Below are positions 1 through 52,750 of a DNA stretch of 64,000 nt, in pieces (position 1 is the stretch's first letter; the number at the start of each line of letters is the position of its first letter). The notes under the pieces are model-generated. The model was not told the DNA's origin, searched no databases, and saw nothing but the letters and a program-made list of their open reading frames with translations. Where the stretch lies: positions 12,317 to 76,316 of the forward strand of contig JBBQUV010000004.1 of assembly GCA_038212075.1 (NCBI GenBank), written 5' to 3'. The DNA comes from Minisyncoccia bacterium. GTDB lineage: Bacteria > Patescibacteriota > Minisyncoccia > Phycocordibacterales > Phycocordibacteraceae. A program made the position numbers and the translations under genes.

Positions 1-2081
1 AAAAACTCGGCGCTGAATTTGTCGCAGTGCGTTCAAGCGCAACTGCCGAGGACGGTGCGGCGGCGGCATGGGCAGGGCAACTTGATACGTACCTCAACAC
101 TACAGATGCGACCCTGCTTGAAAACGTACAACGTTGTTGGGCATCGCTATTCACACCGCGCGCGATCTTCTATCGTTTTGAAAAAGGACTTCACTCCACA
201 CACATTTCGGTCGCCGTTGTGATTCAAAAAATGGTTAACAGCGATGCCGCTGGTATCGCGTTTTCTGTGCACCCGGTTACCGAAGACTATAACCAGCTGA
301 TTATTGAAGCTGGGTTTGGGCTGGGTGAAGCCGTGGTGTCGGGGCAAGTAACGCCGGATTCCTATGTCATCACGAAAGTGCCACGAGAAATAATGGATAA
401 GAATATTTCCGAACAAACGCGCGCGATATATCGAAAAGAGGGAGGGGGAAATGAATGGCGCAACATCCCGACTGAAAAAGCATCGCTACAGGTACTTACC
501 GACGAGCAAATACTCGCACTTACCGAAACAGTCATTGGTATTGAAAAGCATTACGGCTTTCCTGTCGACACTGAGTGGGCAATGGAAAAAGGTGAAATGT
601 ACATCACTCAAAGCCGTCCTATTACGACACTCACCAATAATAACCAAGCAAGCGAATTACATTTTAATTCTCCAGCATTGCAGGGGTTTAATCCTACGGA
701 TTACGAGTACGACGGGCTTTGGAAGAATGATCTTTTCCCAACGTGTTTCTGGCAGGATTGTTGGGTGCCAGATGTCGTTACAGATATAAAGCTCGATATG
801 CAGGGGGCAGGAGTGATGAATTTGAAGGGAGGTCATTTCCTAATCAATAAAGCGGCTCGAGCAAACGTGGACGCACAAATCAAACAGATTATCGACGAAC
901 GGAACGGTGCGTTTTTCAAAAACCTTGTCAGTGTGTCGGACAATATATTCTCTTGGGCAGTTGAGAAAGGAGAAGAAATAAAAACAAAGCCACCCACGCT
1001 CGATGCTTTCCGAGATTTTGTAGCTACCGCAAAGAAAGTAAATTTTCTTTGGCTTATTGGTGCGTCCTATATCCAGTGGCCTGTAGAGGAACGACTGCAA
1101 GAAGCGATTATCGAAGATAAGATTCCAGCCGAACATGCTCTGGATGTTGTGCCCAAGGTTGATACGCCACTTATTCGGTATCAAGAGGGCTTGACCTCGC
1201 TTGCGAAGGAGGTAGAAGGAAAGTCATTTGCAGAGATCAAGAATGATCCAACCCTATACGAAAAACTTGAGACACATGCAAAAGCCTATTCGTGGATAGA
1301 GATTTTCAATTTTATTGGAGAACCGCTAACTCCCGAACGACTGTACGAACAGCTTGCGCATATCGATACAACAAAATCTTTGCACGCGTATGTTCCGTCC
1401 TCACCGCTTTCTTCGAAACTCCAGTTTGTCGCAGAGTGCATGCAAGCAGTGGGGTATGTAAAGCAAGCCGGAGCAGAATACTTCTCTATCTTTTCTGAAA
1501 AAACTATACCGTTTCTGCAAAAAGTCGCTGGTGAAATTGGGCTAACCTATCGAGAGCTTATGTGTCTTTTGGTTGATGAAGTTGACCAGGCGCTCGAAGG
1601 AAAAATCACTACTGAGGAATTGAAAAAAAGAGCCAACAAGCGCCTTGAGACAGTAGATTGGGTGGTCATCGGCGGCGCAGACGGCAAAATGATATTTGCT
1701 GATGATCCGGCCGACATTAATCTTCTTGTGGAAAAGATGGTTCCTCGCATCGGAGCAGGCACGCAGGAACTTGTGGGACAGATTGGCAACCGAGGTTCGT
1801 TCACTGGCCCAGCTCGGATCATTATGAATACGTATGACTTCAATAAATTACAGCCCGGTGACGTGCTGGTGACGACCATGACGACACCGGACTTTATCGT
1901 ACTTATGCAAAAGTCGGGAGCAATAGTTACCGACATAGGTGGGCTTTTATGTCATGCGGCAATTGTTTCGCGTGAGCTTGGAAAGCCATGTGTCATAGGT
2001 ACGAAATTTGCAACGCAATTGTTTAAGGACGGAGACATGGTGGAGGTGGACGGAGACAAAGGAGTAGTGCGGAAGATATAG
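1..2081 (+). CDS. PEP synthase / rifampicin-phosphotransferase-like protein: PPDK_N-type ATP-grasp nucleotide-binding region, helical linker, then C-terminal PEP-utilizing-enzyme mobile (swivel phosphohistidine) domain. 5' end lies outside the window; there is no C-terminal PEP/pyruvate TIM-barrel.
   Basis: The reading frame is open from nt 1 (KLGAEFVAVRSSATAEDGAAAAWAGQLDTY...). The PPDK_N-like motifs AGIAFSVHPVT and EAGFGLGEAVVSGQVTPDSY are present. The C-terminus reads VLVTTMTTPDFIVLMQKSGAIVTDIGGLLCHAAIVSRELGKPCVIGTKFA, which is the conserved swivel-domain His motif. Confidence 0.85.
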   Translation, partial: KLGAEFVAVRSSATAEDGAAAAWAGQLDTYLNTTDATLLENVQRCWASLFTPRAIFYRFEKGLHSTHISVAVVIQKMVNSDAAGIAFSVHPVTEDYNQLIIEAGFGLGEAVVSGQVTPDSYVITKVPREIMDKNISEQTRAIYRKEGGGNEWRNIPTEKASLQVLTDEQILALTETVIGIEKHYGFPVDTEWAMEKGEMYITQSRPITTLTNNNQASELHFNSPALQGFNPTDYEYDGLWKNDLFPTCFWQDCWVPDVVTDIKLDMQGAGVMNLKGGHFLINKAARANVDAQIKQIIDERNGAFFKNLVSVSDNIFSWAVEKGEEIKTKPPTLDAFRDFVATAKKVNFLWLIGASYIQWPVEERLQEAIIEDKIPAEHALDVVPKVDTPLIRYQEGLTSLAKEVEGKSFAEIKNDPTLYEKLETHAKAYSWIEIFNFIGEPLTPERLYEQLAHIDTTKSLHAYVPSSPLSSKLQFVAECMQAVGYVKQAGAEYFSIFSEKTIPFLQKVAGEIGLTYRELMCLLVDEVDQALEGKITTEELKKRANKRLETVDWVVIGGADGKMIFADDPADINLLVEKMVPRIGAGTQELVGQIGNRGSFTGPARIIMNTYDFNKLQPGDVLVTTMTTPDFIVLMQKSGAIVTDIGGLLCHAAIVSRELGKPCVIGTKFATQLFKDGDMVEVDGDKGVVRKI

Positions 2082-2084
2082 GGT

Positions 2085-3107
2085 ATGAGTGAGAAAAGAA
2101 TTATCTTTACCAAACCCTACGAGAGAGATTTTACGCTCGCGATAGAGGAGTATTGGGCGCGCGGATTTCTTGACGTCCTTCTGCCGCGCCTTGGCCTCAC
2201 GTCACCGTTTGAAATATTTGAAATCTTCTACGTCACCGAGGAGAACATGCAGATATGGGAAAATGAAGCAGCTATTCAATGGATACAGGACGAATTGCTT
2301 GCGCGAGTGAACGCCAACCATGCATTTCTTGATCCATATATAGCAGAATACATGGCGCTCCTTGCGCCACTTGAAACATTTTGGCACCAAGGAGCCACGA
2401 ATAACCTCTCCAAAATCAAAGAGTACAGCGAACTAATTCGAGTCGCCGCACCGCTTTTTTCGATGTGGTACTACCCGTGCATCGACGATCGGATTCCGGA
2501 GGATGTACTTATCCGACTGAAGGAGATTCGAAGGACCGATGAATTCTTCGCGAGCAACGATACTTTCATCAAGGACTGCATAGAGAAGCTCGGGGCGGAG
2601 CCGCGGCTCGGGAATCTCGTATATGCCGATGAATTTCCCAACATACCGAGTATGCAGGTACTGAAGATGCGTGCGGCAGGTGTCGTCGGCATCGACGGAA
2701 GACAGCAATTGGTAATGACACTTGAAGCGTATGCAAAGCAGCATCCGGAATATGAATTCGTCGGGTTGTTCGACAAGGTACCAGAGGTAAACGAAGTGAA
2801 AGGGCAGGTCGCGCAGAAGGGCATGGCGACTGGCACGGTGCGTATTGTGAAGAACAAGCGACAAATGCTCGACGTAAAAGATGGAGACATTTTGGTATCG
2901 CCGATGACCACACCTGACTTTCTCTCTGCGATGAAAAAAGCAGCAGCATTTGTTACTGATGAAGGTGGCATCATGTGTCATGCCGCTATCGTCGCTCGAG
3001 AAATGAAAAAGCCCTGCGTTATTGGAACTAAATTCGCAACACAAATCTTCAAGGACGGTGACCTGATAGAAGTAGATGCCGAACAGGGTATTATTAGGAA
3101 ACTATGA
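2085..3107 (+). CDS. PEP-utilizer swivel-domain paralog: helical domain plus C-terminal phosphohistidine mobile domain, with no ATP-grasp.
   Basis: C-terminus GDILVSPMTTPDFLSAMKKAAAFVTDEGGIMCHAAIVAREMKKPCVIGTKFATQIFKDGDLIEVD is near-identical in pattern to the gene 1 C-terminus. It starts 4 nt after the gene 1 stop. Confidence 0.8.
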   Translation: MSEKRIIFTKPYERDFTLAIEEYWARGFLDVLLPRLGLTSPFEIFEIFYVTEENMQIWENEAAIQWIQDELLARVNANHAFLDPYIAEYMALLAPLETFWHQGATNNLSKIKEYSELIRVAAPLFSMWYYPCIDDRIPEDVLIRLKEIRRTDEFFASNDTFIKDCIEKLGAEPRLGNLVYADEFPNIPSMQVLKMRAAGVVGIDGRQQLVMTLEAYAKQHPEYEFVGLFDKVPEVNEVKGQVAQKGMATGTVRIVKNKRQMLDVKDGDILVSPMTTPDFLSAMKKAAAFVTDEGGIMCHAAIVAREMKKPCVIGTKFATQIFKDGDLIEVDAEQGIIRKL

Positions 3108-3424
3108 TTATAAAAGGTATGGCAGCAAGCCAGGGCATCGCAGAAGGCTCAGTCAAGATCGTGATTGGCTCAAACGATATCAGTAAGTTCAAAGAAGGCG
3201 ATATTCTTGTCGCGGAGGTGACAGAGCCTTCAATGGTGCTCATGATGACTATGGCTGCTGCCATCGTTACCGATAAGGGCGGCATGACGACTCATGCAGC
3301 CATCGTTTCGCGCGAACTCGGCGTGCCGTGCGTCGTCGGAACCAGGGAGGCAACGACCACACTCAAGGACGGCATGCGGGTGCGTGTCGACGGTTCCGCC
3401 GGGACGGTCGAGATGCTCGATTGA
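3104..3424 (+). CDS. Stand-alone PEP-utilizing-enzyme mobile (swivel phosphohistidine) domain protein, 106 aa.
   Basis: MIIKGMAASQGIAEGSVKIV...GDILVAEVTEPSMVLMMTMAAAIVTDKGGMTTHAAIVSRELGVPCVVGTREATTTLKDG covers the swivel domain only. It overlaps the upstream stop by 4 nt (ATGA coupling). Confidence 0.8.
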   Translation: MIIKGMAASQGIAEGSVKIVIGSNDISKFKEGDILVAEVTEPSMVLMMTMAAAIVTDKGGMTTHAAIVSRELGVPCVVGTREATTTLKDGMRVRVDGSAGTVEMLD

Positions 3425-3425
3425 T

Positions 3426-4502
3426 ATGACTCCTTCCTGGATAGACGAGTATGCTCGCTCCGTCCACCAAGCGTATGTAGGAATGGTGCCATCGCGATGG
3501 TCTTCGCTTGACGGATTGAAAGCGTATCAGTCGCAGCAAGGAGCTTCCTTCATTTTTCTCGAGCGTCTGCGCATAAAGCATACGGAACTCGGTACGAAGC
3601 CGGAAGTACTTTTCAAACTTTTCAGTACTGCATCCACGCTCCGTGCCACTTTTTTGTTCCTCGCTTGGGAATACGCGAAGATATCAGATAAAAATGAGTA
3701 TCGTGTGCTCGCCCGAAACATATTCGATTGGCTCGATGGCATCCTTTCCGCGGGAATGCTCGAAGACAAATGGGTTCTTGCCAAGAATCTTATTCATACA
3801 TCCGAGGAAGTCGCAGGTACCCTTACCGATACTCCGTGGATAGAAGAAAACCTGCAGGCCGTGAAGGACGCGGGGAAGATGTATGTAAGCGCCGCGTCAA
3901 TAGGATTCGCCCTTTACCGCGACTTCTTTCCACAAGAAGCGCATGAAGCATACGGCCCTTATGACGCGAGCGAGCGTTTTGGTCCGGATACAACTCTTGT
4001 CGTAAAGCATTTCCCGAAATTGAAACCAGTCGAGCTCTGGCCCGAGGTGAAAAATTTTCCATACGAAGAAGTAACTATCTACCAGATATTGAAAGGAGTG
4101 CACTTCCGATGCGAACTTATCGGAATGCATTCTTTGTATGACGGTCCGTCTGTGCCGAACACAGCGGCCATAGCGGTAAAAGTAGACGGGCGCTTTCTGC
4201 CAGAAGATGAGATCGCGAAGGTTGCTATGGATATTGCGAAGCACGCAACCGAGTACTCGCATCTCTATGAGAAACTTACACTTCATGAAGCGAAGCTCAA
4301 ATTTGTCGAGTGGGAAACGTATCAGTTCAACCGGCTCTTCGAAGCCGCCGGCATGGACTGGCGTCCGACAGATGGGCTCCTCGCGCCTGTGATGGCCAAC
4401 GATATTCCTATGGGCATCTCCATCGATTCCTGGCCAGTATATGAGGAGTTCGTATCGAGTAAGGAGTACGAAGTGTTCTGGCTCCAAGACCTCTATAAAT
4501 AA
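3426..4502 (+). CDS. Hypothetical protein of the same array, without a swivel domain. Its ATG is 2 nt after the stop of the stand-alone swivel-domain gene.
   Basis: ORF with ATG at 3426 (MTPSWIDEYARSVHQAY...) immediately after the TGA at 3422-3424. There is no recognisable catalytic motif. Its position and translational coupling suggest it is the partner of the 106-aa swivel protein. Confidence 0.55.
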   Translation: MTPSWIDEYARSVHQAYVGMVPSRWSSLDGLKAYQSQQGASFIFLERLRIKHTELGTKPEVLFKLFSTASTLRATFLFLAWEYAKISDKNEYRVLARNIFDWLDGILSAGMLEDKWVLAKNLIHTSEEVAGTLTDTPWIEENLQAVKDAGKMYVSAASIGFALYRDFFPQEAHEAYGPYDASERFGPDTTLVVKHFPKLKPVELWPEVKNFPYEEVTIYQILKGVHFRCELIGMHSLYDGPSVPNTAAIAVKVDGRFLPEDEIAKVAMDIAKHATEYSHLYEKLTLHEAKLKFVEWETYQFNRLFEAAGMDWRPTDGLLAPVMANDIPMGISIDSWPVYEEFVSSKEYEVFWLQDLYK

Positions 4503-4515
4503 TAAGACGACATAC

Positions 4516-6171
4516 ATGAAGCCTTATGTAGCACTCGGAGTTCGCAATAGGACGCTGATGGAGGGGTATGGTCTTCTTGATTCCTATAAGCGACAGATAC
4601 CGGGTACGAAATGTCAGATAGAGAAGGCGCTCGACGTCGGAGAAGGGTACGCGGTGCGCCTCTGTCACAATGTTGAGGACAGGGCTCGTATTAGAAAGAT
4701 AATGGAAGAAGAGGTCCGTGCTGGCATATATACGCAAGAATTCTTCGACGCTATAGATACGACTTATAAAGATATAGTCAAAGATTTGAAATTCTTCGAG
4801 GAAGTCGATTTTAGTTCCATTAGTTCCGACGAAGTCCTCGCGTATTTCGACCATTTCTATCAGCTAGTTGTTACGACGGTTCATCCGATGGTTCTCGGAA
4901 TTTACGCTTCCGACTTGCAGGATGTGTTCGAAGCGGAACTCAAAACAGCTCTTGGGAATGATGCAAACGATGAAGTAGTGCTCAGTCATACTGCACTTCT
5001 TCTTACCCCTACTCGTCTTATAACCGTCCAGAAGGAAGAACAGCGGCTCTTTGAGATACAGGATCGTTTTGAGCACGAATATCCCTCAGGAACGGACGAG
5101 CAGTACGAAATCTGGAGTAAGCAACCCGATGCAGCTGTATTATTCGATACTCTTGTCACAAATCTCGGTTGGTTCCATATGGAATACCTTGGCGAGCCGC
5201 GTACCGCCGAGGAATATCAAAAGCAGATCGGAGAGCGCATCGCTGATCTCCGGAAGGCGGGGATCGAATGGACAACCCAGCAATCTCCGAAAGCACGTCT
5301 TGAAGAGCTGACGGGCGAACAGAAAGCATTTTTCGCTCGCCACTCTGATACCGCTCTACTGCAAGCGCTTGTCTTTACGATGCAGGAATATCTCATCGTC
5401 CTTGATTTCTCTAAAGCCGATCTCATTGAGGGATTGTATTATTCGAGACCCCTTCTTGCTGAGCTCGGCAAGCGCGTCGGACTCGATTCGTGGATAGACG
5501 TTCGTTACCTTACGCTGGAAGAATTGCGCGCATTCATACACGAGAAAAGGATAGTGAATAAAGACTACATCCGGGAGCGCAAGGAATACTGGACTGCGCT
5601 ACTTGAGGACGGTGTCATCAGTCTCACGTACGGTAGAGAAGCGCGTGAACTTACTGATCGGATTCTCGAGAAAGATGAGGTTACTGATACAAAAGAGTTC
5701 AAAGGGCTTTCCGCATATCCCGGAGTTGTCCGGGGAATTGCGTGTGTAGTAACTTCAGCTAAGGATCGCGACAAATTTAAACAGGGACAGATACTCGTGA
5801 CCGTAGATACGACAACGGAGCTTACATCTATTATCAAAAAATCCGCCGCCATCGTCGCGGACCAGGGAGGTTTGCTTTCCCATACCGCCATCGTTTCCCG
5901 CGAGTTCAAGATTCCGTGCATCGTCAGAACGAAGATAGGTACGAAGCTTGTGAAGGATGGGGATGAGATCGAAGTAGATGCTGGTAAGGGCATTGTCCGG
6001 ATCCTTAACCAGAGAGAAAAGATTCTGCTATGCTTGCTGTATAACCAAAACTATTTATGGAACAAGGCTTCAGGCATACATACGCGGAAGGGAACGAGAA
6101 GGCTCCGAAGGCATTTCATCTTCGAATGCATATCTTCCGACATGGGAAGAAGGACGGCCCTCATGACGTGA
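4516..6171 (+). CDS. PEP-utilizer swivel-domain paralog: helical linker region plus C-terminal phosphohistidine domain, no ATP-grasp.
   Basis: C-terminus GQILVTVDTTTELTSIIKKSAAIVADQGGLLSHTAIVSREFKIPCIVRTKIGTKLVKDGDEIEVD. The upstream linker (LTLEELRAFIHEKRIVNKDYIRERKEY...TKEFKGLSAYPGVVRGIACVV) aligns with the corresponding region of gene 1. The motif LGWFHMEYLGEPRTAEEY is shared with genes 1, 7 and 8. Confidence 0.75.
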   Translation: MKPYVALGVRNRTLMEGYGLLDSYKRQIPGTKCQIEKALDVGEGYAVRLCHNVEDRARIRKIMEEEVRAGIYTQEFFDAIDTTYKDIVKDLKFFEEVDFSSISSDEVLAYFDHFYQLVVTTVHPMVLGIYASDLQDVFEAELKTALGNDANDEVVLSHTALLLTPTRLITVQKEEQRLFEIQDRFEHEYPSGTDEQYEIWSKQPDAAVLFDTLVTNLGWFHMEYLGEPRTAEEYQKQIGERIADLRKAGIEWTTQQSPKARLEELTGEQKAFFARHSDTALLQALVFTMQEYLIVLDFSKADLIEGLYYSRPLLAELGKRVGLDSWIDVRYLTLEELRAFIHEKRIVNKDYIRERKEYWTALLEDGVISLTYGREARELTDRILEKDEVTDTKEFKGLSAYPGVVRGIACVVTSAKDRDKFKQGQILVTVDTTTELTSIIKKSAAIVADQGGLLSHTAIVSREFKIPCIVRTKIGTKLVKDGDEIEVDAGKGIVRILNQREKILLCLLYNQNYLWNKASGIHTRKGTRRLRRHFIFECISSDMGRRTALMT

Positions 6172-6950
6172 CCCCCGAAGTGGATATGGTAATGGCCCTG
6201 AAATCGGAAGGCAGGATGCAAGCCCATGAGAAAGGTGTCAGTTTAGGAACAACGGGCGGCGTTGCAAGTGGTAGCAGCCGAGCGCGTACCCGTGAGACCG
6301 CGATGCACGTCGCGCACGCGAATAATCCGGAAATAAAAGGTACCGAAACCTATGAAGAACTGGTTGAGAAACTGGGTAGGCCGTGGACGAATAAGGCATT
6401 CGACATGCCGTTTAGCAAGGATGACGAAGATTTTCCCATCATCCTAGAGAAATCGAATGACGGTACGCTCCTCAAATGGTGTGCTGAGCAGGCTGATAAG
6501 GCGCTTGTGGAAGGAGACGCGAGCAATACCATTTACGGTACCCAGGCGCGCGAGATAGCAAAAGTCTTAGTACGTTTCGCGGCCATAGCGTCAAAAATGG
6601 CGGACCGTGCCGAACTTATGTTTGAGCGTGGCGAAGAACCAGAAACTGAGCGTGAACAAGTGATGGGAACACATGCGGGCGTGAATGAGTCATTCGTCGC
6701 CGAAGTCGTGAAGCGTACGCTTGGCGAGGATGAACGACAGAAACTGCTGGACGCCGTCCCATCCGGTGTTATGGAAACGCAAGGGTCGGACATCAATATC
6801 GTGGCTCGCCCTGGCGGAGAAGAACCACGCATCCACCTAAGATTCGAAGGAGGAAAAGAACAGAAATATATCTTTGATCAGGATGTCCCTCTCTCAGTCA
6901 TTCGTAGCATTATCAAAGATTTTTCTCCGAGAGAAACCCCAGAAGCATGA
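6126..6950 (+). CDS. Histidine phosphatase superfamily (phosphoglycerate-mutase/SixA-like branch) protein.
   Basis: N-terminal MHIFRHGKKDGPHD (RHG catalytic motif), GVASGSSRARTRETA (the SS-x-RA-x-TA motif) and a distal QVMGTHAGVNESFV (second catalytic His). The start is chosen at the ATG just before RHG. The longer ORF from 6057 overlaps the upstream gene further. Confidence 0.6.
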   Translation: MHIFRHGKKDGPHDVTPEVDMVMALKSEGRMQAHEKGVSLGTTGGVASGSSRARTRETAMHVAHANNPEIKGTETYEELVEKLGRPWTNKAFDMPFSKDDEDFPIILEKSNDGTLLKWCAEQADKALVEGDASNTIYGTQAREIAKVLVRFAAIASKMADRAELMFERGEEPETEREQVMGTHAGVNESFVAEVVKRTLGEDERQKLLDAVPSGVMETQGSDINIVARPGGEEPRIHLRFEGGKEQKYIFDQDVPLSVIRSIIKDFSPRETPEA

Positions 6951-8527
6951 ATAAGAACCTTGAATGGTTCTGGGCGCACCGGAGGAATTCAAGCCTTCAT
7001 CATATGAGTTTTCTTATGCGTGGACTCGCAGGGAAGGGGTGGGCGCCCGCGGTTGATTTCTGGTTTGATAATCAGGCGTTTGTGGGCGTTCCTGGTAAAG
7101 GAATTTATATCTTTTACGATAAGCATCAGCTTTCGTCAGAGGGGAAATACAAGGATGTACAGGAAAGTATCGATAAAAATCCGGATTTTGTAGGAGATTT
7201 CAAGAAACGTACCGATGAATTATTCGGCGCAATATTTGCGAGCTGTAAGCAGATTGATGCCGCGGACCTGGTCGCCTTTACGGATACAGAACTCGAAGCA
7301 CTCTACGTCGAGATACTCTCGAGTTTGATGATTGCACCGATTATCTCGGTCCAGCTTTGGGGTATTGAAGCATGTTTCGATGAGAGCTATCGTATTATTC
7401 GTTTCTTGCGTTCACGGCTTGAGGAACTCCATAAGAGTCGAGATTTTGATACCTACCGCGGGTTACTATCTGTGAACACAGGCGAGACCGTTGCTTTCAC
7501 CGAGCAGAAAGATTTCTATGGCGTTGCGGCTCAGATAGCGCGCGTGCCTGAACTCGCCATTTTATTCGCTGGTGAAAATACTGCGAGTGCAAGTACTGCA
7601 TTAAAACGTTTTCCGAAAGAGGATGCGCTTTTTACCGGACATGTCTCAAAATATGAGTGGATGCATTCGGAATATGTTGGGCATGCATGGTCGCGTGAAA
7701 AATGGATAGCACTCTTTCAAAAAGCATTCCGGGAGACCTTAAGGCCAGAGGAGAAGCTTAAGGAACTGCTTGAGAATTTTGCCGAACAGAACGCGGAGCG
7801 AAATAATGCGATCGCAGAATTGTCACCACCACCGGACGTACTTCATGCCATAGATGCGCTCGGTGAATTTATTGCACAACGTGATTGGACCAAGGGATAT
7901 TTTACGAAGATACTGCTCAGTTATCACAAACTGCTGGACGAGATAGGTCGGCGTCACGGTCTCGCGCGCACAGAGCTTTTCGACTACTCATATATCGAGG
8001 TTCAGGAACTTCTTGCTTCTGGCAACAGACTTTCAAACGAAGAACTCAAAAGTCGTAAGCAAGATGGTTTCGCTGTAGTAATTACGGGAGGTGACTTCAA
8101 TCTTACGACTGGTAAGGATGCAATTGCTAGTGTCATCAACACGGAAGGATTGGCTGAGCCGTTTGAGAAATATATGAACGTCTCAGAATTCAAGGGACTT
8201 GCCGCTTCGCGCGGGCACATCACCGGGAAGGCGAGAGTACTTGAAGATGCTTCACGGATTTCGGAACTTCAACCCGGAGAGATACTGGTAACATACATGA
8301 CGACGATTGAATTTATCCCGGCTTTCCGAAAGGCCGCCGCCGTAGTGACAGACGAGGGCGGCATGTCGTGTCATGCCGCGATCATTAGTCGTGAATTCAA
8401 GCTACCTTGCGTGGTGGGAACAAAAGTTGCCACAAGAGTGGTGCAAACGGGCGATACGCTTGAGGTAGATGCGATCCACGGAATTATAAAGATACTTGAT
8501 TCGGCAACACCGTCTGACGCTGTATAA
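6947..8527 (+). CDS. PEP-utilizer swivel-domain paralog: N-terminal helical domain plus C-terminal phosphohistidine domain.
   Basis: C-terminus GEILVTYMTTIEFIPAFRKAAAVVTDEGGMSCHAAIISREFKLPCVVGTKVATRVVQTGDTLEVD. The linker LARTELFDYSYIEVQELLASGNRLSNEELKSRKQDGFAVVITGGDFNL...GHITGKARVL parallels the gene 1 linker, and WMHSEYVGHAWSREKW matches the shared motif. ATGA overlap with the upstream gene. Confidence 0.75.
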   Translation: MNKNLEWFWAHRRNSSLHHMSFLMRGLAGKGWAPAVDFWFDNQAFVGVPGKGIYIFYDKHQLSSEGKYKDVQESIDKNPDFVGDFKKRTDELFGAIFASCKQIDAADLVAFTDTELEALYVEILSSLMIAPIISVQLWGIEACFDESYRIIRFLRSRLEELHKSRDFDTYRGLLSVNTGETVAFTEQKDFYGVAAQIARVPELAILFAGENTASASTALKRFPKEDALFTGHVSKYEWMHSEYVGHAWSREKWIALFQKAFRETLRPEEKLKELLENFAEQNAERNNAIAELSPPPDVLHAIDALGEFIAQRDWTKGYFTKILLSYHKLLDEIGRRHGLARTELFDYSYIEVQELLASGNRLSNEELKSRKQDGFAVVITGGDFNLTTGKDAIASVINTEGLAEPFEKYMNVSEFKGLAASRGHITGKARVLEDASRISELQPGEILVTYMTTIEFIPAFRKAAAVVTDEGGMSCHAAIISREFKLPCVVGTKVATRVVQTGDTLEVDAIHGIIKILDSATPSDAV

Positions 8528-8534
8528 TTTTTGC

Positions 8535-9959
8535 ATGAATAAAACCGATATTTTAGAGAAGAAATGGATTAACTATGGACGGTGGACACAGCCGACCATT
8601 TCAGGCGCCTTTTGGACACACTGGGATGAAGCAGAGTGCGCGCGTGAAGTAAGTCAGGACTCTCCGCTCCCGGCGATCGTATTCCTCGACGGGTACCATC
8701 TTACTCCTCTGGATGAAGACCATGCAGTGAAGACTTATTTTAATAAACGATACAGCGAAGGAACGCTTGGAGAATTTCTTGAGAAATTTGAGACATCATC
8801 AAAGAAAAGCGAAGCGCGGATCCTTGCGATTCTTGGCAATACGATGCTTTCTAATGCTGAATACGCACGAGAGCTTTTTGCTGCCTTTCTCGAGGTTGTT
8901 GGCGCGTGGTCATTCCTTTTCCGGTTCTCCACGTCACTTGAAGAAATCGCACGCGAACAAGGACTAGCTGTAAGTGACGACGATATCTTGCGGCATATGC
9001 GTCCCTATACCCGCGTTACGTTGCTCGAGCAGCAGACCATTGAACTTAAAGAATTCGCGCGGGCATTGCGTGCGCAATACCCAGCTATTCCAGTAACAGA
9101 ACTCACTAAACATGTAATGGATGACGCGTCGACGCCCCTTCTCGCTAAAATTCATGATCATGTTCAGGAATTTTCCTGGTTTGGCACACATCACTGGGAA
9201 GGAGAGCCCTACACGCTCGAAAAATGCCTTTCTGATATTCAAGACATACTGAATAAGGGAGGGGATGTGGAAGAGGGATCAGTTGCCGTATCGTCGAGCG
9301 AAGGCGATCAGACCATATGGAAACTTCTCGCAGCTTTTGCATATTGGCGCACCCACTGCGCAGAAGTGAGTGACAAAGCGGCATACCTTTCGCGTGAACG
9401 ACTTACGGATGTGGCAAAGAAATGGAGTATTACCTACGAGGAGCTTACTTGGCTTTCAAGTGGAGAGATTATAAAAGCGCTTGATATAAGTGAGGACTCT
9501 ATTGAGCTCCCCACAAACTTTGCTGAACGAAAAGCTGGATATGGGGCATGGGTTGATAACGGTGTTGAGCATATTGTTGTTGGTGCAGAACTCGCCACAC
9601 TCATTGATGCGGCTGTTCCAAAAGTTGATACTTCCGTGTCTGAGATTAAAGGAACTGTCGCAAGCAAGGGTGGCGTAATTACCGGTATCGCACGCATCAT
9701 TATGGGGCCAAGTGAATTTGCCAGTTTTGTCGCGGGAGATATTTTGGTCGCAAACGAAACCACACCAGACTTCGTTCCGCTTATGAAAAATGCCGCGGCA
9801 ATTGTGACTGATACGGGCGGCATTACTTCTCACGCGGCAATTGTTTCTCGTGAGCTTAAGAAGCCCTGTGTTATAGGCACCAAAATCGCAACGAAAGTAT
9901 TCAAAAATGGCGATATGGTTGAAGTGGATGCAATTAACGGAATTGTCCGAAAGATATAA
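8535..9959 (+). CDS. PEP-utilizer swivel-domain paralog: N-terminal helical domain plus C-terminal phosphohistidine domain.
   Basis: C-terminus GDILVANETTPDFVPLMKNAAAIVTDTGGITSHAAIVSRELKKPCVIGTKIATKVFKNGDMVEVD. The linker LTYEELTWLSSGEIIKALDISEDSIELPTNFAERKAGYGAWVDNGVEHIVVGAE...GVITGIARII and the motif FSWFGTHHWEGEPYT match the others. Confidence 0.75.
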   Translation: MNKTDILEKKWINYGRWTQPTISGAFWTHWDEAECAREVSQDSPLPAIVFLDGYHLTPLDEDHAVKTYFNKRYSEGTLGEFLEKFETSSKKSEARILAILGNTMLSNAEYARELFAAFLEVVGAWSFLFRFSTSLEEIAREQGLAVSDDDILRHMRPYTRVTLLEQQTIELKEFARALRAQYPAIPVTELTKHVMDDASTPLLAKIHDHVQEFSWFGTHHWEGEPYTLEKCLSDIQDILNKGGDVEEGSVAVSSSEGDQTIWKLLAAFAYWRTHCAEVSDKAAYLSRERLTDVAKKWSITYEELTWLSSGEIIKALDISEDSIELPTNFAERKAGYGAWVDNGVEHIVVGAELATLIDAAVPKVDTSVSEIKGTVASKGGVITGIARIIMGPSEFASFVAGDILVANETTPDFVPLMKNAAAIVTDTGGITSHAAIVSRELKKPCVIGTKIATKVFKNGDMVEVDAINGIVRKI

Positions 9960-46998: not shown

Positions 46999-49764
46999 AT
47001 GGAGGGAGCATTTGAGGCACCAGCACAACCCTTGCAGAGCCCTGAAGAGGAGCTCGCGTATTTGCGTGCGCAGGTGCAGGCAAAAGAAAAACAGCTTGCG
47101 GCGCTTCAGCAAGAACAACCGCGAGAAGCGATTGTAGAGGAACGCATTTTGCACCATCACCAAGCGGCACCACAAACCGTGCTCGCGCCACAGTACGAAC
47201 TGCCACAAACCGAAGCGCATGCGCTCGCGCTTAATCTTGACCCAGAAGCCGACGACGAAACCATGAGCGAACTTCGTGGGATTATGGAAGAAAAGGGCAT
47301 TAAAAACGCGCTTACTGTTCTTGAAAAATTAAACAGCCCGCACTTGGAGGACGATTTTCATCGGTTTCTTGCCCAATACATTCTTTCTGGAATGCCGGCG
47401 CGCGGGCTTGAAGAAAAGAAACCAGAATGGAAGGCACTTCATATGACGCTCTACGAAATTGCGCTTCCAGAACCGTCTGCGGAAGACGAACAAAATAATC
47501 GCGTCAAGCCGCTCAAAGAGCTTATTTCTGCGATGGAGCAGTTTTATTCAGGAATGCTTTCGGTAGAACACGCCGACCCAAACGAACCATCATATTTTTC
47601 AATGGAGCTTGCGGTGCCTGCAAACCATGCACAACTTTTCTTTTATGTGGGCGTACCAAACCATAAAAAAGACCTCTTTGAGAAACAAATACTTTCCATA
47701 TTTCCAAACGCACGCATCATACCGCAATCAAACGACTACAACATTTTTGTGCCTGATGGCTCAGCGTGCGGGTCGGTGGCTTCGCTTGCCACGTGGCCTG
47801 CACTCCCTCTAAAAGACTACGAAAACTTTGACTACGACCCATTGAATAGTGTGCTCAACGCATTTGCAAAAATAGAAGCAGAAGGAGAAGGTGCGGCGCT
47901 CCAAATTATTATTGAACCAGCAGGAGAGCAATACCACGAGCATTATAGAAAAATCCTCCAAGGGCTTCGCAAGGGAGAGAACCGACTGCGCGCACTTTCA
48001 ACACCAGCTGGCTTGCTCGGAGAGACTGCGCGAGAATTTGGCAGTTTCTTGTTTGGCGCCACCAAAGAAAAGAAAGAAGAATACGAAAATAAAATTCGTA
48101 GTTCCGATATAAACAAATTGGATATAGAGCAAGTGGAGCGCAAAATCGCTACGCCAATCGTGAACACCACTATTCGCATGATTGTCTCATCGTCCGACGC
48201 ACACCGCGCGCAGGCGGGGCTTATAGATCTTGAATCGTCATTCAATCAATTTACAAACACGGTAGGGAACCAGCTTACGTTTAATCGCCCAACTGCATCG
48301 CGTGCAAAGAGTGTTTTCCACGACTTCTCCTACCGGCTCCCATCTTCCACGAAGATGCCCCTTTCTTTGAAGGAAATCACGACCATGTATCACTTCCCAC
48401 CAAAGGGAATAGAATCGACGCCACAATTGAGCCAGTCGCGCTTCACGGCCGCGGCCGCGCCACTTGGTATTCCCCAAGCGGGCACGCTTCTTGGTACCAA
48501 TTCATTCCGTGGAAAGACATCCAACGTATGTCTTGAGCTTGAAGACCGTTTGCGCCACCTCTACATCATTGGACAAACCGGTACTGGTAAAACAGTGTTT
48601 ATGAAAAATCTTGCCATTCAAGATATTCTTGCAGGCAATGGCGTGTGCTTCATTGATCCGCACGGTAACGACATTTTGGATATTCTTGCCGCCATTCCAC
48701 CCGAACGCTATGAAGACGTCATTTATTTTGACCCAGCAGACATCAAACGTCCGTTCGGACTTAATCTTTTGGAATACGATGCCGCGCATCCGGAGCAAAA
48801 AACATTCATCGTGAACGAACTACTCGCCATTTTCCGTCGTTTGTACGGCGATGTTCCTGAGTCTATGGGTCCCGCGTTTGAACAGTACTTCAGAAACGCA
48901 ACGCTTCTCGTGATGGAAGACCCCGCTTCGGGTTCCACTCTGCTCGATGTCGCACGGGTGCTTTCAAACAAACCATTCCGTGATTTGAAGCTCAGCAAGA
49001 GTACCAATCCGGTCATCAATCAATTCTGGCGTGAAATTGCCACACAGGCTGGTGGGGAAGCCTCGCTTGAAAATATCGTGCCCTACATCACCAACAAATT
49101 TGACGACTTCACGGCAAACGATTTTATGCGCCCGATTGTCGGTCAGCAAGAATCGTCCTTTAACTTCCGTGAAGTCATAGATACGAAAAAGATATTGCTC
49201 GTGAATCTTTCAAAGGGTCGCCTTGGTGAACGAAACGCAAACCTGCTAGGGCTTATCTTGGTGGGCAAGCTCTTTATGGCGGCATTGTCGCGTGCCGACG
49301 CCCCCGGTACGCAATTCCCACCATTCTTCTTGTATATCGACGAATTCCAGAACATCACCACCGATTCTATTCCTGGTATTTTGTCGGAAGCCCGCAAATA
49401 CAAGCTTTCCCTCAATATCGCGCACCAATTCCTTGCGCAAGTTGACGAAAAAATTCGCGATGCGGTGTTTGGCAACGTTGGCTCCATGGCAGTATTCCGC
49501 GTCGGGCAGGAAGATGGAGAATTCTTTGAAAAACAATTTGCACCAACCTTTACCGCACTGGATTTTGTGAACATTGAAAACTACAACGCATATATCAAGA
49601 TTCTTGCAAAAGGTGTGCCGCAGAAACCATTTAATATAAAAACACCGGCACCGTTTGCGGGAAATCCAAATCAAATAGATGACCTGCGTGAACTATCATT
49701 CCTTACCTATGGGCGCGACCGTCAACAGGTAGAGAGTATGATTCACGCTCGCTATCTGTCATAA
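46999..49764 (+). CDS. VirD4/TraG/TraD-like type IV coupling-protein-family ATPase (FtsK/HerA clade) with a long N-terminal coiled-coil/acidic region and no obvious TM anchor.
   Basis: Walker A YIIGQTGTGKTVFMKN. Walker B / DEFQN box FFLYIDEFQNITTDSIPGILSEARKYKLSLNIAHQFLAQV (TraG-D_C-like). Downstream FRVGQEDGEFF. 921 aa. Confidence 0.6.
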   Translation: MEGAFEAPAQPLQSPEEELAYLRAQVQAKEKQLAALQQEQPREAIVEERILHHHQAAPQTVLAPQYELPQTEAHALALNLDPEADDETMSELRGIMEEKGIKNALTVLEKLNSPHLEDDFHRFLAQYILSGMPARGLEEKKPEWKALHMTLYEIALPEPSAEDEQNNRVKPLKELISAMEQFYSGMLSVEHADPNEPSYFSMELAVPANHAQLFFYVGVPNHKKDLFEKQILSIFPNARIIPQSNDYNIFVPDGSACGSVASLATWPALPLKDYENFDYDPLNSVLNAFAKIEAEGEGAALQIIIEPAGEQYHEHYRKILQGLRKGENRLRALSTPAGLLGETAREFGSFLFGATKEKKEEYENKIRSSDINKLDIEQVERKIATPIVNTTIRMIVSSSDAHRAQAGLIDLESSFNQFTNTVGNQLTFNRPTASRAKSVFHDFSYRLPSSTKMPLSLKEITTMYHFPPKGIESTPQLSQSRFTAAAAPLGIPQAGTLLGTNSFRGKTSNVCLELEDRLRHLYIIGQTGTGKTVFMKNLAIQDILAGNGVCFIDPHGNDILDILAAIPPERYEDVIYFDPADIKRPFGLNLLEYDAAHPEQKTFIVNELLAIFRRLYGDVPESMGPAFEQYFRNATLLVMEDPASGSTLLDVARVLSNKPFRDLKLSKSTNPVINQFWREIATQAGGEASLENIVPYITNKFDDFTANDFMRPIVGQQESSFNFREVIDTKKILLVNLSKGRLGERNANLLGLILVGKLFMAALSRADAPGTQFPPFFLYIDEFQNITTDSIPGILSEARKYKLSLNIAHQFLAQVDEKIRDAVFGNVGSMAVFRVGQEDGEFFEKQFAPTFTALDFVNIENYNAYIKILAKGVPQKPFNIKTPAPFAGNPNQIDDLRELSFLTYGRDRQQVESMIHARYLS

Positions 49765-49771
49765 TGTATAT

Positions 49772-52750
49772 ATGAAAATCGGTGGCTTTAACATTCCTCC
49801 AAGAAAACCAAAAGACGATAAAGAACCGGAAGATCTTCGCGGTAATAGAGACTCACTTCCGGAGCTTGGTGGCATGTCGCCCGCTGATTTTAGGAATCAA
49901 CCACTGCCCGCACCCCAAGAAGCAAATATTTCTCCTGCAGATTTTCGTAGAGAAAGAGACGGTGGTGAGGCACCACCTATTCGCCCAGAAGACAAGCTTG
50001 GCGCCGGCGCAAGCGCTGAAGAAGTTAAGGTCGCCGTTGCTGACATTCTTGCGGAAGAAAAACCATCAGCAGATACTCGTTCTGAAAACCAAAAACGCTC
50101 AGAGCGCGGGGAATCCTACTCTGCAGACTGGGCAGGCTCGGGTAAAAGTCCTGCTGAAGTAATTGCCTTGAAGCAACGTCTTGAATCGCTCGTGGGTGCG
50201 GTGCAAGCAAAAACAAAAAAATGGAAAGAAGACTCTGAGGCCAAAAGTAAGGCAAAGAAAGAGGCAAAAACAAAGAAAGCAAGTGATAAGGCTACTGCCA
50301 AAACACAAAAAGTCGATGCTAAAGAGTCGGCAAAGAAAGAAAAGACCGACAGGAAATCTGCAAAAGAAAGTGTTAATGCTGAAAAAAAGGAAAAAATAAA
50401 ACAAGAACGTATTGAAGCGGTAGACGGCAAGCCGGGCGTGAAAGAAGCAAAACGTAGCGAACTTGCTGACAAGGCAGGCGCAAAGCTTGAGCGAGAGAAT
50501 ATGATAAGTGCAGAAAAAGAATATTTTGCAGAATACAAAACATTTATCACGAAAAATGGCGTTACTAAGCGTCTTTTCAAGAACGTTTTTAATACCAAGG
50601 ATGCCGACCTGCTTGCGAAATTTAAAAACAACTACGACGACGCTCGTGCGCTCTACACTAAACGTCTGCGTCAAACAGTGACTGATCGCGTGGATGAAAA
50701 ATTTGGCATCACTGAATACGACGAAAATAATAACCCTCTCGGAGAGGAGAAGGTTCTGGAGAAGCGAAACAGGATGATTGAGAAATACATGGCGGTTCAG
50801 CGCTTCAACGACGTCATTACTCGTGCGGCAGAAGGACGTACTGAAGCACGAAAGGAAGCGCTGAATGAGCGCGGCAAAGGAACGCTTCGCAAAATGGGAG
50901 ACAAAATCGGCGAATGGAACCGAAACTTGGAAAAGAAATATGGCAAAAGAAATGCCCGCATCATTCGCCTTCTTGGAAGCACTGCCGCGGCATCTGCGCT
51001 CTTTTCACTTAGCGGTGGCGTTGGAGTGCTTGGGTATGCGGCCGGTAAGGTGACGCGTGGGCTCATTAGTATGACCGCCGGTTCAACGGTGGGTGGTATC
51101 GCTGGTCTTGGTTACACCCATACGATAGGAAAATTGATGGAGTATCAGTTGGCACGCACTCGTCGCAGTCAAGGCTCCGGCGCAAATCAAATTCAAAAAG
51201 AGGAACGTGCCCATCGTATCGGAAATAAAAAAGCGATTGAAAAACAACGAATGGTGGTTGAACTTCTTACGGGCGTTGGCCTGTCGTACGAAACCGCAAC
51301 GCATCTTGCTACGGTCGACATAATGCAACACACTGCCGCTTCGGTGAACCACGGTGGTTCAGTACAGTGGGGTGATCATCACAAACCATCAACGATTTCT
51401 TCTAGTCACTCAGCAGGTTCAGAATCCGCTCCAGTGCAATCACATGAATCAAACGGCAGTAACGCCGATTCATCCACGGCGGATACAAACACCGCACCAA
51501 GCGATACGGTTTCTGGCGGAGGCACGCCACCTGCTGACGCTGGAACGGGTGGGGAAACAAGTACCACAGCCCCAAGCCCAGATGATTTTAAATCCATACC
51601 AGAAGGTTCAGATGCTGTAGGAACAGATGGGGCCGCACCTCCGTCTATAGAAAATGCATTGAATTTGCATACTGAAGTGCACGCAGGACAGGGCGCAAAC
51701 CAAGTGTGGGGCGATTTCAAAGAACAGTTGCGAGATAGTGGTGTGCTCAACGATCCAAACACTTCGCCTGAAGCACGCGCCGCAATTCAACACATTCTTG
51801 ATTCAAAACCGGGAGCTCTTTCATCCGAATACGGTTTTGCAACAGAAAACGCGAGCGCGGTGATTCACACAGGGGATTCCATTGATGTCGCGCAAAACGG
51901 GGATATTGTGTTCACTCCACATCATGGTGAAGGAATTGTGCTTGCACACACCGATGCCGACGGCACGGTGCATCCGGCAGACCATTCCGACCTTACAATG
52001 AAGCCAAATCACCCGGTGATTTCTGAGAAACACACTCCACAGCACACCGTTCACCACACACCACACACGACGTCTGTCGATAGTCCGGAAAGTTTGGCCC
52101 AAGTGAAGGCAATCTACGAGTGGGAACACGCTCACCCAGGCGAACCTATTCCACAGAACCTCTACCTTCACACAGACGTCTCTCCACCAGCTCCAGAAAA
52201 TGTTCCAACGCAATCACCGGAAGTTTCTCCAACTCATTCTGATGTCGCGCCACTTCCGCCAACGCATACTGAATTACCTCCACCAGCACCACAAGCAGAT
52301 CTTCTTTCCCGTATTGAATCAGCTCAATCTCCAGAGTCTGTGCGTAGTATTCTTGATGCTGAAATACACGCCCACGGCGTAACGCCTGCATTGATGGCAG
52401 ATCTTATAAAAGAAGCTCCACACATGCCAGCAAACCCGCACCTTGCTTCATATATTGATATTGACTCGAGCGGAACATTGCCCGGCCCAGCTGTATTTCT
52501 GGGTCACGATGGACAGCTAACGGTGTATGGTGCTGCAGATGCCGGTAGTACGTACGAAGCACAACTTAAATTAGCGCACAGCTTTGCCGGAACGTCTGGT
52601 CAACCGGTCAACGTGCTTTTTGCGGATCATTCGCCTGGCCACGTGAAAGTGTATCCGGATGGACACGTAGAAGGGGTTACTAAAGGATTCTTTAGCTCAT
52701 ATCAGCCGCCGGAACCTCTTCAAAAATCAGTATATGTATTTCAACGCTAA
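49772..52750 (+). CDS. Very large (992 aa) low-complexity protein: Lys/Glu-rich charged region, a central Gly-rich hydrophobic segment, then a Ser/Thr/Pro/His-rich disordered region and a C-terminal globular part.
   Basis: Region 1 AKKEAKTKKASDKATAKTQKVDAKESAKKEK. Region 2 LLGSTAAASALFSLSGGVGVLGYAAGKVTRGLISMTAGSTVGGIAGLGY. Region 3 SSSHSAGSESAPVQSHESNGSNADSSTADTNTAPSDTVSGGGTPPADAGTGG and PTHTELPPPAPQ. Confidence 0.5.
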   Translation: MKIGGFNIPPRKPKDDKEPEDLRGNRDSLPELGGMSPADFRNQPLPAPQEANISPADFRRERDGGEAPPIRPEDKLGAGASAEEVKVAVADILAEEKPSADTRSENQKRSERGESYSADWAGSGKSPAEVIALKQRLESLVGAVQAKTKKWKEDSEAKSKAKKEAKTKKASDKATAKTQKVDAKESAKKEKTDRKSAKESVNAEKKEKIKQERIEAVDGKPGVKEAKRSELADKAGAKLERENMISAEKEYFAEYKTFITKNGVTKRLFKNVFNTKDADLLAKFKNNYDDARALYTKRLRQTVTDRVDEKFGITEYDENNNPLGEEKVLEKRNRMIEKYMAVQRFNDVITRAAEGRTEARKEALNERGKGTLRKMGDKIGEWNRNLEKKYGKRNARIIRLLGSTAAASALFSLSGGVGVLGYAAGKVTRGLISMTAGSTVGGIAGLGYTHTIGKLMEYQLARTRRSQGSGANQIQKEERAHRIGNKKAIEKQRMVVELLTGVGLSYETATHLATVDIMQHTAASVNHGGSVQWGDHHKPSTISSSHSAGSESAPVQSHESNGSNADSSTADTNTAPSDTVSGGGTPPADAGTGGETSTTAPSPDDFKSIPEGSDAVGTDGAAPPSIENALNLHTEVHAGQGANQVWGDFKEQLRDSGVLNDPNTSPEARAAIQHILDSKPGALSSEYGFATENASAVIHTGDSIDVAQNGDIVFTPHHGEGIVLAHTDADGTVHPADHSDLTMKPNHPVISEKHTPQHTVHHTPHTTSVDSPESLAQVKAIYEWEHAHPGEPIPQNLYLHTDVSPPAPENVPTQSPEVSPTHSDVAPLPPTHTELPPPAPQADLLSRIESAQSPESVRSILDAEIHAHGVTPALMADLIKEAPHMPANPHLASYIDIDSSGTLPGPAVFLGHDGQLTVYGAADAGSTYEAQLKLAHSFAGTSGQPVNVLFADHSPGHVKVYPDGHVEGVTKGFFSSYQPPEPLQKSVYVFQR

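Follow-up and report, generated by a model that had tools for sequence, protein, structure and literature searches.

A free phosphohistidine swivel protein and its partner of an undescribed family in a Minisyncoccia gene array: probable subunits of a split histidine-swivel dikinase

We analyzed a stretch of 64,000 nucleotides (nt) from a Minisyncoccia bacterium (GenBank assembly GCA_038212075.1, contig JBBQUV010000004.1, positions 12,317 to 76,316; hereafter the window, in which all coordinates are counted from the first base), the first 10 kb of which are filled by eight closely packed genes on the + strand. The third and fourth of these genes are the subject of this work. Gene 3 (3104–3424, + strand) encodes a bare phosphohistidine swivel domain of 106 amino acids (aa), and gene 4 (3426–4502, + strand) encodes a protein of an undescribed family, which we propose to be an acceptor-substrate or catalytic subunit. 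The ATG of gene 3 lies over the stop codon of gene 2 in an ATGA overlap (3104–3107). At the other end of gene 3, a single T (3425) separates its TGA (3422–3424) from the ATG of gene 4 (3426), and we read this TGA-T-ATG junction (3422–3428, + strand) as translational coupling. The initial annotation of this DNA had described gene 3 as a bare swivel domain tightly coupled to a swivel-less partner, and this description stands, since gene 3 has a full-length match to the swivel family PF00391 and gene 4 contains no swivel. The coupling at the junction was also correctly recognized, but the gap between TGA and ATG is 1 nt, and gene 4 encodes 358 aa followed by a stop codon, rather than 359 aa.

The searches were carried out against a 2025 copy of Pfam and the June 2026 release of NCBIfam. 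Gene 3 matched PF00391 (phosphoenolpyruvate (PEP)-utilizers mobile domain) at residues 29–100, covering profile positions 1–72 of 72 (E 2.9e-28; 97.7 bits, with a cut-off of 23.1), and this was its only Pfam match; its best NCBIfam matches were PEP synthase models (134.5 bits). The boundaries of gene 3 are those of the C-terminal swivels of genes 1, 2, 7 and 8, and gene 3 is therefore a clean, whole domain. Its loop TDKGGMTTH ends in His64 (codon CAT, 3293–3295, + strand, read from the sequence within GGMTTH), the predicted phosphorylated histidine, which was aligned with the catalytic histidine of every other swivel compared. The published motif for the catalytic loop of swivel domains is T/SxxGGxxxH (PMC12167813). 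The three-layer beta/beta/alpha swivel fold was found in a swivel of the same clade, that of the natural fusion protein P0085, which was modeled in place of gene 3. The comparison with HPr of the phosphotransferase system (PTS), also made in the initial annotation, is useful at the level of function only: gene 3 is a PF00391 domain without a match to the HPr family PF00381, and it does not have the HPr fold. The 3' half of gene 3 is slightly richer in GC (0.56 versus about 0.47–0.50), a shift in composition too small to argue for a foreign origin of the gene.

The ATG at 3426 is the correct start of gene 4, because the N-terminal residues W5 and D7, which lie upstream of the annotated start, are kept in at least 90% of the homologues. 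The NCBI protein model (P0001, 339 aa) begins at Met20 (3483), 19 residues too late; this start leaves out a conserved W-I-D-E-Y segment and hides the one-base gap to gene 3. Gene 4 had no match in Pfam, NCBIfam or the PADLOC models, the 56 members of the gene-4 alignment pointed to no consistent Pfam family at E values of up to 1, and a sequence-profile search of the PDB gave a best E of 0.42. The 86 close homologues, of about 360 aa, are all unnamed or labeled 'hypothetical', and the names that do exist are those of Patescibacteria lineages. When searched exhaustively with a profile, the family grew to 490 clusters at 50% identity, each counted by one representative; 164 representatives reached E ≤1e-30. 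The AlphaFold2 model of gene 4 (mean pLDDT 97.3, pTM 0.93) consists of an N-terminal helical bundle (residues 1 to about 165) and a C-terminal half formed by an antiparallel sheet with helices. Foldseek searches with this model found nothing significant in the PDB (best E 0.17, TM 0.12) and no match among the viral models of BFVD. The most conserved residues, in an alignment of 212 members, were R73, D114, D166, G177, P178, Y179, W205, H235, W312 and P314, a set compatible with a phosphoryl-transfer site. We found no description in the literature of the gene-4 family or of a three-part dikinase with a free swivel, and a resistome survey that counts rph-like genes in these bacteria makes no mention of the swivel/gene-4 module.

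The pairing of a bare swivel with gene 4 is widely conserved. We retrieved 46 related loci, in which 36 unfused homologues of gene 4 have upstream sequence. A bare swivel open reading frame (ORF) of 72–132 aa was located directly upstream in 34 of these 36 cases, ending between −32 and +22 nt from the first gene-4 profile position. The two exceptions are locus L007, in which a gene-4-type swivel ends a helical protein, and the third copy in a tandem of modules. After the removal of near duplicates, 25 non-redundant loci carry the pair, an arrangement far beyond chance, and the equivalent junctions of related loci likewise show overlaps or spacers of a few bases. The pairing holds at 25–28% identity to gene 4 of the window (L013, L014 and L042–L046), and it was seen in Patescibacteria and on contigs with archaeal-type (DPANN-like) neighbours. 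In many of the related loci, a protein of about 350–500 aa ending in a swivel, mostly of the helical+swivel type, directly precedes the bare swivel. In L007, a 480-aa helical protein with a C-terminal gene-4-type swivel (L007:2162–3604) adjoins the gene-4 homologue, and the bare swivel is absent; this state would be the expected product of a deletion between adjacent swivel-coding segments, such as those of genes 2 and 3 in the window.

A neighbor-joining tree of 46 swivels resolved two main groups, with the swivels of four fused proteins (P0212, P0218, P0228 and P0232) outside both. Group 1 comprises the C-terminal swivels of helical proteins, and group 2 comprises the swivels associated with gene 4, whether bare, fused to gene 4 or attached to the helical protein of L007. 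Group 2 sequences have T-E/D-P-S/T-M where group 1 sequences have T-T-P-D-F. The pairwise identities of the bare swivels and those of the gene-4 proteins were strongly correlated (r = 0.82, 25 non-redundant loci). In a control restricted to the 12 loci that also carry an array gene, the pair gave r = 0.76, and the comparison of gene 4 with the nearest array swivel gave r = −0.08. Judging from these comparisons, gene 3 appears to be the dedicated phosphoryl carrier of the gene-4 module rather than a general carrier of the array, because its swivel clade is separate and follows the variation of gene 4 but not that of the array.

The initial annotation had asked whether the two genes are fused elsewhere, and this proved to be the case, in support of the view that they work as one unit; as a rule, the swivel comes before gene 4. 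Among the 232 gene-4 family proteins retrieved, 203 are stand-alone and 16 consist of an N-terminal swivel followed by gene 4, although one of these (P0020) looks frameshifted. The remaining architectures are tandem gene-4 proteins (4 of 232), five proteins with an additional N-terminal domain, here called helX (helX+gene 4 and helX+swivel+gene 4), and single cases of gene 4+PPDK_N (P0179), swivel+PPDK_N+gene 4 (P0218), gene 4+PPDK_N+swivel (P0228) and gene 4+swivel. P0228 comes from a Nanoarchaeota genome, and a member of its cluster is annotated as 'PEP/pyruvate-binding domain-containing protein'. The split state is thus the commoner one, so that the fission put forward in the initial annotation is not an established evolutionary direction. 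Two close relatives, L014 (split, with overlapping frames) and P0083 (fused in frame), differ at the junction; a single indel therefore separates the split from the fused state, and evolution moves between them in both directions. The helX domain covers the first 320–350 residues or so (1 to about 325 in P0119, P0122 and P0133, and 1 to about 345 in P0121 and P0140) and has no Pfam match. It was also considered as a relative of the array helical domains, but no kinship was detectable (best hhalign probability 20%). In L032 (15–3803), a third gene-4 copy comes after two swivel/gene-4 modules, all on the same strand, and P0087 and P0088 are tandem fusions of two gene-4 domains. The gene-4 family therefore diversifies by duplication.

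The natural swivel+gene 4 fusion P0085 served as a positive control for the structural comparisons (model pLDDT 94.6, pTM 0.83), and its model was also the approximation used for the co-fold of genes 3 and 4 that the initial annotation had suggested. With this model, Foldseek recovered rifampin phosphotransferase (RPH), pyruvate, phosphate dikinase (PPDK), enzyme I and pyruvate kinase, and the gene-4 part matched nothing. The alignments to RPH comprised 104–108 swivel columns only, with a root-mean-square deviation (rmsd) of 1.0–1.6 Å and 34–36% identity (5hv2: 1.0 Å over 104 columns). Against PPDK entries, the Foldseek rmsd for the fusion model was about 17–20 Å, and there was no superposition beyond the swivel. 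The TIM barrel that forms the third domain of PPDK-type enzymes (PEP-utilizers_C) was not found in gene 4 or in the 56 family members, none of which has a Pfam match, and the predicted secondary structure differs.

The pair also has a recurrent ATP-grasp partner. A PPDK_N gene was found in 12 of 44 loci. A stand-alone copy lies directly downstream of gene 4 in L004/L029, L005, L013, L026 and L042, PPDK_N starts the array in L027 and L031, and it is nearby in L007, L035 and L038. The operons of L005, L013 and L042 are minimal, with swivel, gene 4 and PPDK_N and without any array member. The sole PPDK_N of the window is the N-terminal domain of gene 1, two genes upstream of gene 3. In the product of gene 1 (1–2081, + strand), this ATP-grasp domain is joined to a helical domain and to a swivel at the C-terminus. 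Its ORF is open at the window start and is listed from position 27, with no in-frame stop at positions 3–26; the PPDK_N match starts from profile position 105 at residue 1 (Pfam, E 3.6e-68), and PF00391 was matched at residues 609–679. Over its 208 visible residues, the ATP-grasp domain of gene 1 is 58–69% identical to the stand-alone PPDK_N proteins next to gene-4 homologues and to the PPDK_N of P0179. It is therefore the same component, fused here to a helical+swivel protein, and it is the probable in-trans charger of the swivels, including gene 3.

The other swivel proteins of the array are encoded by gene 2 (2085–3107; 340 aa, with a short helical domain; PF00391 at residues 265–335), gene 5 (4516–6171; 551 aa, PF00391 at 421–492), gene 7 (6947–8527; PF00391 at 442–512) and gene 8 (8535–9959; PF00391 at 400–469), all on the + strand and all with a helical domain. 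As the initial annotation had noted, the swivel is C-terminal to a larger domain in genes 1, 2, 5, 7 and 8, and this was confirmed with Pfam. Genes 1, 5 and 7 align with RPH-type models past the swivel, and BLAST among the array proteins interlinks all the swivels and several helical domains. The ORF of gene 5 runs about 50 residues past the usual swivel end (6010–6171) and overlaps the start of gene 6 by 115 nt, unlike the other array genes, which end 2–14 residues after the swivel; this extension could be due to a lost stop codon or to a mis-set start of gene 6, for which there is an alternative ATG at 6126. The array plan recurs (window 1–9959; L002, L004/L029, L007, L026, L027, L031 and L037), with a single PPDK_N ATP-grasp, which is either stand-alone or, as in gene 1, part of a fusion, ahead of several helical+swivel paralogues, and usually with the bare swivel and gene 4 at the distal end. 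The array of the window has one ATP-grasp domain to six swivels. No PADLOC model of anti-phage defence matched genes 1–8. The remainder of the window is ordinary for a bacterium with a reduced genome and encodes housekeeping proteins (aminoacyl-tRNA synthetases, MreB, PBP2-type transpeptidases, a Mur ligase and RNase J). Two large adjoining ORFs on the + strand (46999–49764, 921 aa, and 49772–52750, 992 aa) had no Pfam match at E ≤1e-5, and the tRNA and Rfam searches of the window gave no matches.

Histidine-phosphatase genes are frequent neighbours of the module. Gene 6 (6057–6950, + strand) encodes a member of this superfamily (a weak match to PF00300, His_Phos_1, E 4e-5; 23.8 bits, with a cut-off of 21.7) with RHG and THAG motifs. 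A second family, of about 200–270 aa and here called U, adjoins the swivel/gene-4 pair in 13 loci. It lies upstream on the same strand in L005 (8869–9555), L008 (8756–9562; also in L036), L013 (3374–4012) and L042 (4833–5555), and it is convergent just 3' of gene 4 in L006 (3557–4270), L019 (2224–2829), L024 (3142–3738), L025 (2644–3288), L027 (7116–7718), L028 (2391–3008), L030 (6697–7281) and L031 (7116–7700). Family U is a divergent group of the histidine phosphatase superfamily, with invariant RH, S...R and H residues, and PF00300 was matched by 8 of 12 members (best E 7.5e-10). In the PDB, the SixA-like protein Alr0221 (3f2i) was its best match, ahead of phosphoglycerate mutases and the PhoE phosphatase. 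The hhalign probability between gene 6 and U was 31%, and gene 6 is a different member or subfamily of the same superfamily, located inside the array. In L014, a low-molecular-weight phosphatase gene is directly upstream of the swivel. The target of such a neighbouring phosphatase could be either the phosphorylated product or the phosphohistidine carrier. Genes for TrmB-family transcription regulators lie no more than a few kb from the module, fused or split, in four independent contexts (L009:2231–3061; L011:1690–2445; L013:152–904 and 2412–3140; L014:5246–5989), and this recurrence could reflect sugar-responsive control or coincidence. The neighbours in the minimal loci gave no clue to the substrate beyond the phosphatase family and these TrmB-type regulators.

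The gene 3/gene 4 system can be compared with several characterized enzymes. It shares with RPH and the family of small-molecule dikinases a PPDK_N ATP-grasp, a phosphohistidine swivel and, as proposed for gene 4, a separate acceptor-binding domain, but RPH is one polypeptide, in the order ATP-grasp, rifampin-binding domain and swivel (PMC4844700), whereas the swivel is here a free protein and gene 4 is unrelated to the rifampin-binding domain by sequence and by Foldseek. The two-component phenolic dikinases HpeHI and CreHI and phenylphosphate synthase PpsAB (PMC12167813) are likewise split enzymes with similar operons, in which the swivel histidine on one polypeptide is charged in trans by a stand-alone ATP-grasp subunit. 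However, HpeH and PpsA carry the swivel fused to an RPH-like substrate domain on one polypeptide, an arrangement not seen in genes 3 and 4, which with the ATP-grasp make three pieces with another family of substrate domain; also unlike HpeHI, PpsAB and CreHI, the gene 3/gene 4 system often has a histidine-phosphatase-family gene as a fourth piece. The swivel-associated PPDK_N typical of dikinases is provided in the window by gene 1. With PEP synthase (PpsA) and PPDK, the resemblance is that gene 3 and the ATP-grasp of gene 1 match PEP synthase models best in NCBIfam and that the swivel of PpsA also precedes the third domain. These enzymes differ from the gene 3/gene 4 system in that the latter is encoded by separate genes and has, instead of the PEP-utilizers_C TIM barrel, a helical bundle with an antiparallel sheet. 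As in PTS enzyme I/HPr and DhaM, a small phosphohistidine protein would shuttle a phosphoryl group between larger partners, and the gene 3 swivel is homologous to the N-terminal alpha/beta subdomain of enzyme I. In contrast to the PTS, the fold of gene 3 is not that of HPr, the likely donor is ATP via the ATP-grasp rather than PEP, and no PTS components are present.

We consider it likely that genes 3 and 4 encode two subunits of a split histidine-swivel dikinase, in the mechanistic class of PEP synthase, PPDK and RPH. In this class, ATP is bound by the ATP-grasp domain and gives its beta-phosphate to the swivel histidine, with the release of AMP and Pi, and the swivel then moves to a second domain, where the acceptor is phosphorylated. 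In the proposed scheme, the ATP-grasp (the N-terminus of gene 1 here, a separate gene in many relatives) would bind ATP and phosphorylate His64 of gene 3; the charged swivel would then dock on gene 4, which represents a new family of alpha plus beta type with conserved R, D, D, Y and H residues and which would bind the substrate and take over the phosphate. Overall, ATP + X + H2O would be converted to AMP + Pi + X-P, or vice versa, and translational coupling would yield gene 3 and gene 4 in stoichiometric amounts. Domain identities, conserved adjacency, pair co-variation, natural fusions and ATP-grasp orthology were all computed. What we infer by analogy is that phosphate is transferred, in which direction it moves and that gene 4 serves as the acceptor: the charging of His64 by gene 1 and the delivery at gene 4 are suggested by the natural fusions and by two precedents, RPH, in which the swivel was crystallized docked on the acceptor domain (PMC4844700), and HpeHI, in which charging of the swivel in trans falls to a separate ATP-grasp subunit and activity is lost when the histidine is mutated (PMC12167813). 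Two observations weigh against this scheme. No PPDK_N was found in the fetched flanks of 32 of the 44 loci, although many of these contigs are short, and the helX+swivel+gene 4 and helX+gene 4 proteins of some relatives indicate that the module may exceed three parts.

The initial annotation had offered another explanation, according to which gene 4 would be the helical domain of an ordinary array protein, split off with the domain order inverted, and the free swivel would be a diffusible carrier between the other array members. The position of the pair inside an array of helical+swivel paralogues, and the gene-4-type swivel attached to a helical protein directly upstream of gene 4 in L007, are in keeping with such an origin. 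However, BLAST found nothing in common between gene 4 and the helical domains, and the profile comparison, a check named beforehand, was negative: hhalign of the 56-sequence gene-4 alignment against 17 helical domains from the window and related loci gave 1.3% for the pooled domains and 0.1–1.8% individually, and we reject the idea that gene 4 is homologous to these domains. The same comparison, which includes the RPH-like helical domains of the array (≤1.8%), gives no homology to the rifampin-binding domain of RPH, and Foldseek aligned RPH through the swivel alone. A shared carrier is at odds with the presence of a swivel of its own in every other array member, with the separate clade of gene-3-type swivels and their co-variation with gene 4 rather than with the array, and with the swivel/gene 4/PPDK_N operons that have no array members. 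We therefore regard fission of the helical+swivel architecture as very unlikely. An artefact or a pseudogene, in which a frameshift would have split one swivel+gene 4 gene or cut the swivel off gene 2, is still harder to defend. A one-base deletion at 3422–3425 would join both frames, fused relatives exist, P0020 looks like a frameshifted read-through, and L014 and P0083 differ precisely at the junction, but the same split recurs with different junctions in 25 non-redundant loci of many lineages, which rules out the sequencing error considered in the initial annotation. Moreover, the end of gene 3 is that of the swivels of genes 1, 2 and 8, the N-terminus of gene 4 is conserved from its ATG, and gene 2 already has a complete swivel. 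We give this explanation almost no credence.

An alternative with more to recommend it, which we nevertheless find rather improbable, is that gene 4 is not the acceptor, but a phospho-donor domain (comparable to the PEP-binding domain of enzyme I, or to PPDK working towards ATP synthesis) or a regulator or scaffold that binds the swivel. The chemistry of PPDK and PEP synthase is reversible, energy metabolism is limited in Patescibacteria and DPANN, and the frequent adjacent histidine phosphatase, with its best PDB match to 3f2i, hints at phosphohistidine control. However, the fusions of ATP-grasp, swivel and gene 4 alone (P0218 and P0228) fit a donor-carrier-acceptor layout, and the strongly conserved polar residues R73, D114, D166, Y179 and H235 point to catalysis rather than to a scaffold. 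The split dikinase, with gene 4 as the acceptor subunit, thus remains the explanation that we prefer.

A more far-reaching version of the split dikinase is possible, but we think it somewhat doubtful: gene 4 may represent a phosphoryl-acceptor class with a new fold that works only with a free swivel and that would form, together with a shared ATP-grasp and the SixA-like phosphatase, a four-part histidine phosphorelay confined to the ultra-small symbiotic Patescibacteria and DPANN, the arrays being hubs of 'one ATP-grasp, many acceptor modules'. If so, dikinase parts would make up a PTS-like relay, which might serve to trap scavenged metabolites.

To our knowledge, histidine-swivel dikinases have been known with few kinds of acceptor: the PEP/pyruvate TIM barrel, the RPH-type domain and glucan-binding modules. 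The mechanism class itself is not new, and two-component dikinases were characterized in 2025 (PMC12167813). What is new is an acceptor family without a PDB match, a stand-alone swivel in a three- or four-gene system and the restriction of this system to Patescibacteria and DPANN. The gene-4 family is widespread and had gone unannotated; it comprises about 490 clusters at 50% identity, and Foldseek found no PDB counterpart of its confidently predicted structure. It also indicates that a swivel can exist as a free, dedicated carrier, so that the phosphotransfer steps would be separable and testable in vitro. The family is concentrated in Patescibacteria and DPANN archaea, the metabolism of which is poorly understood, where it is found in multi-gene arrays with phosphatases, and its substrate could point to a reaction peculiar to these organisms, whether for scavenging, detoxification or energy conservation.

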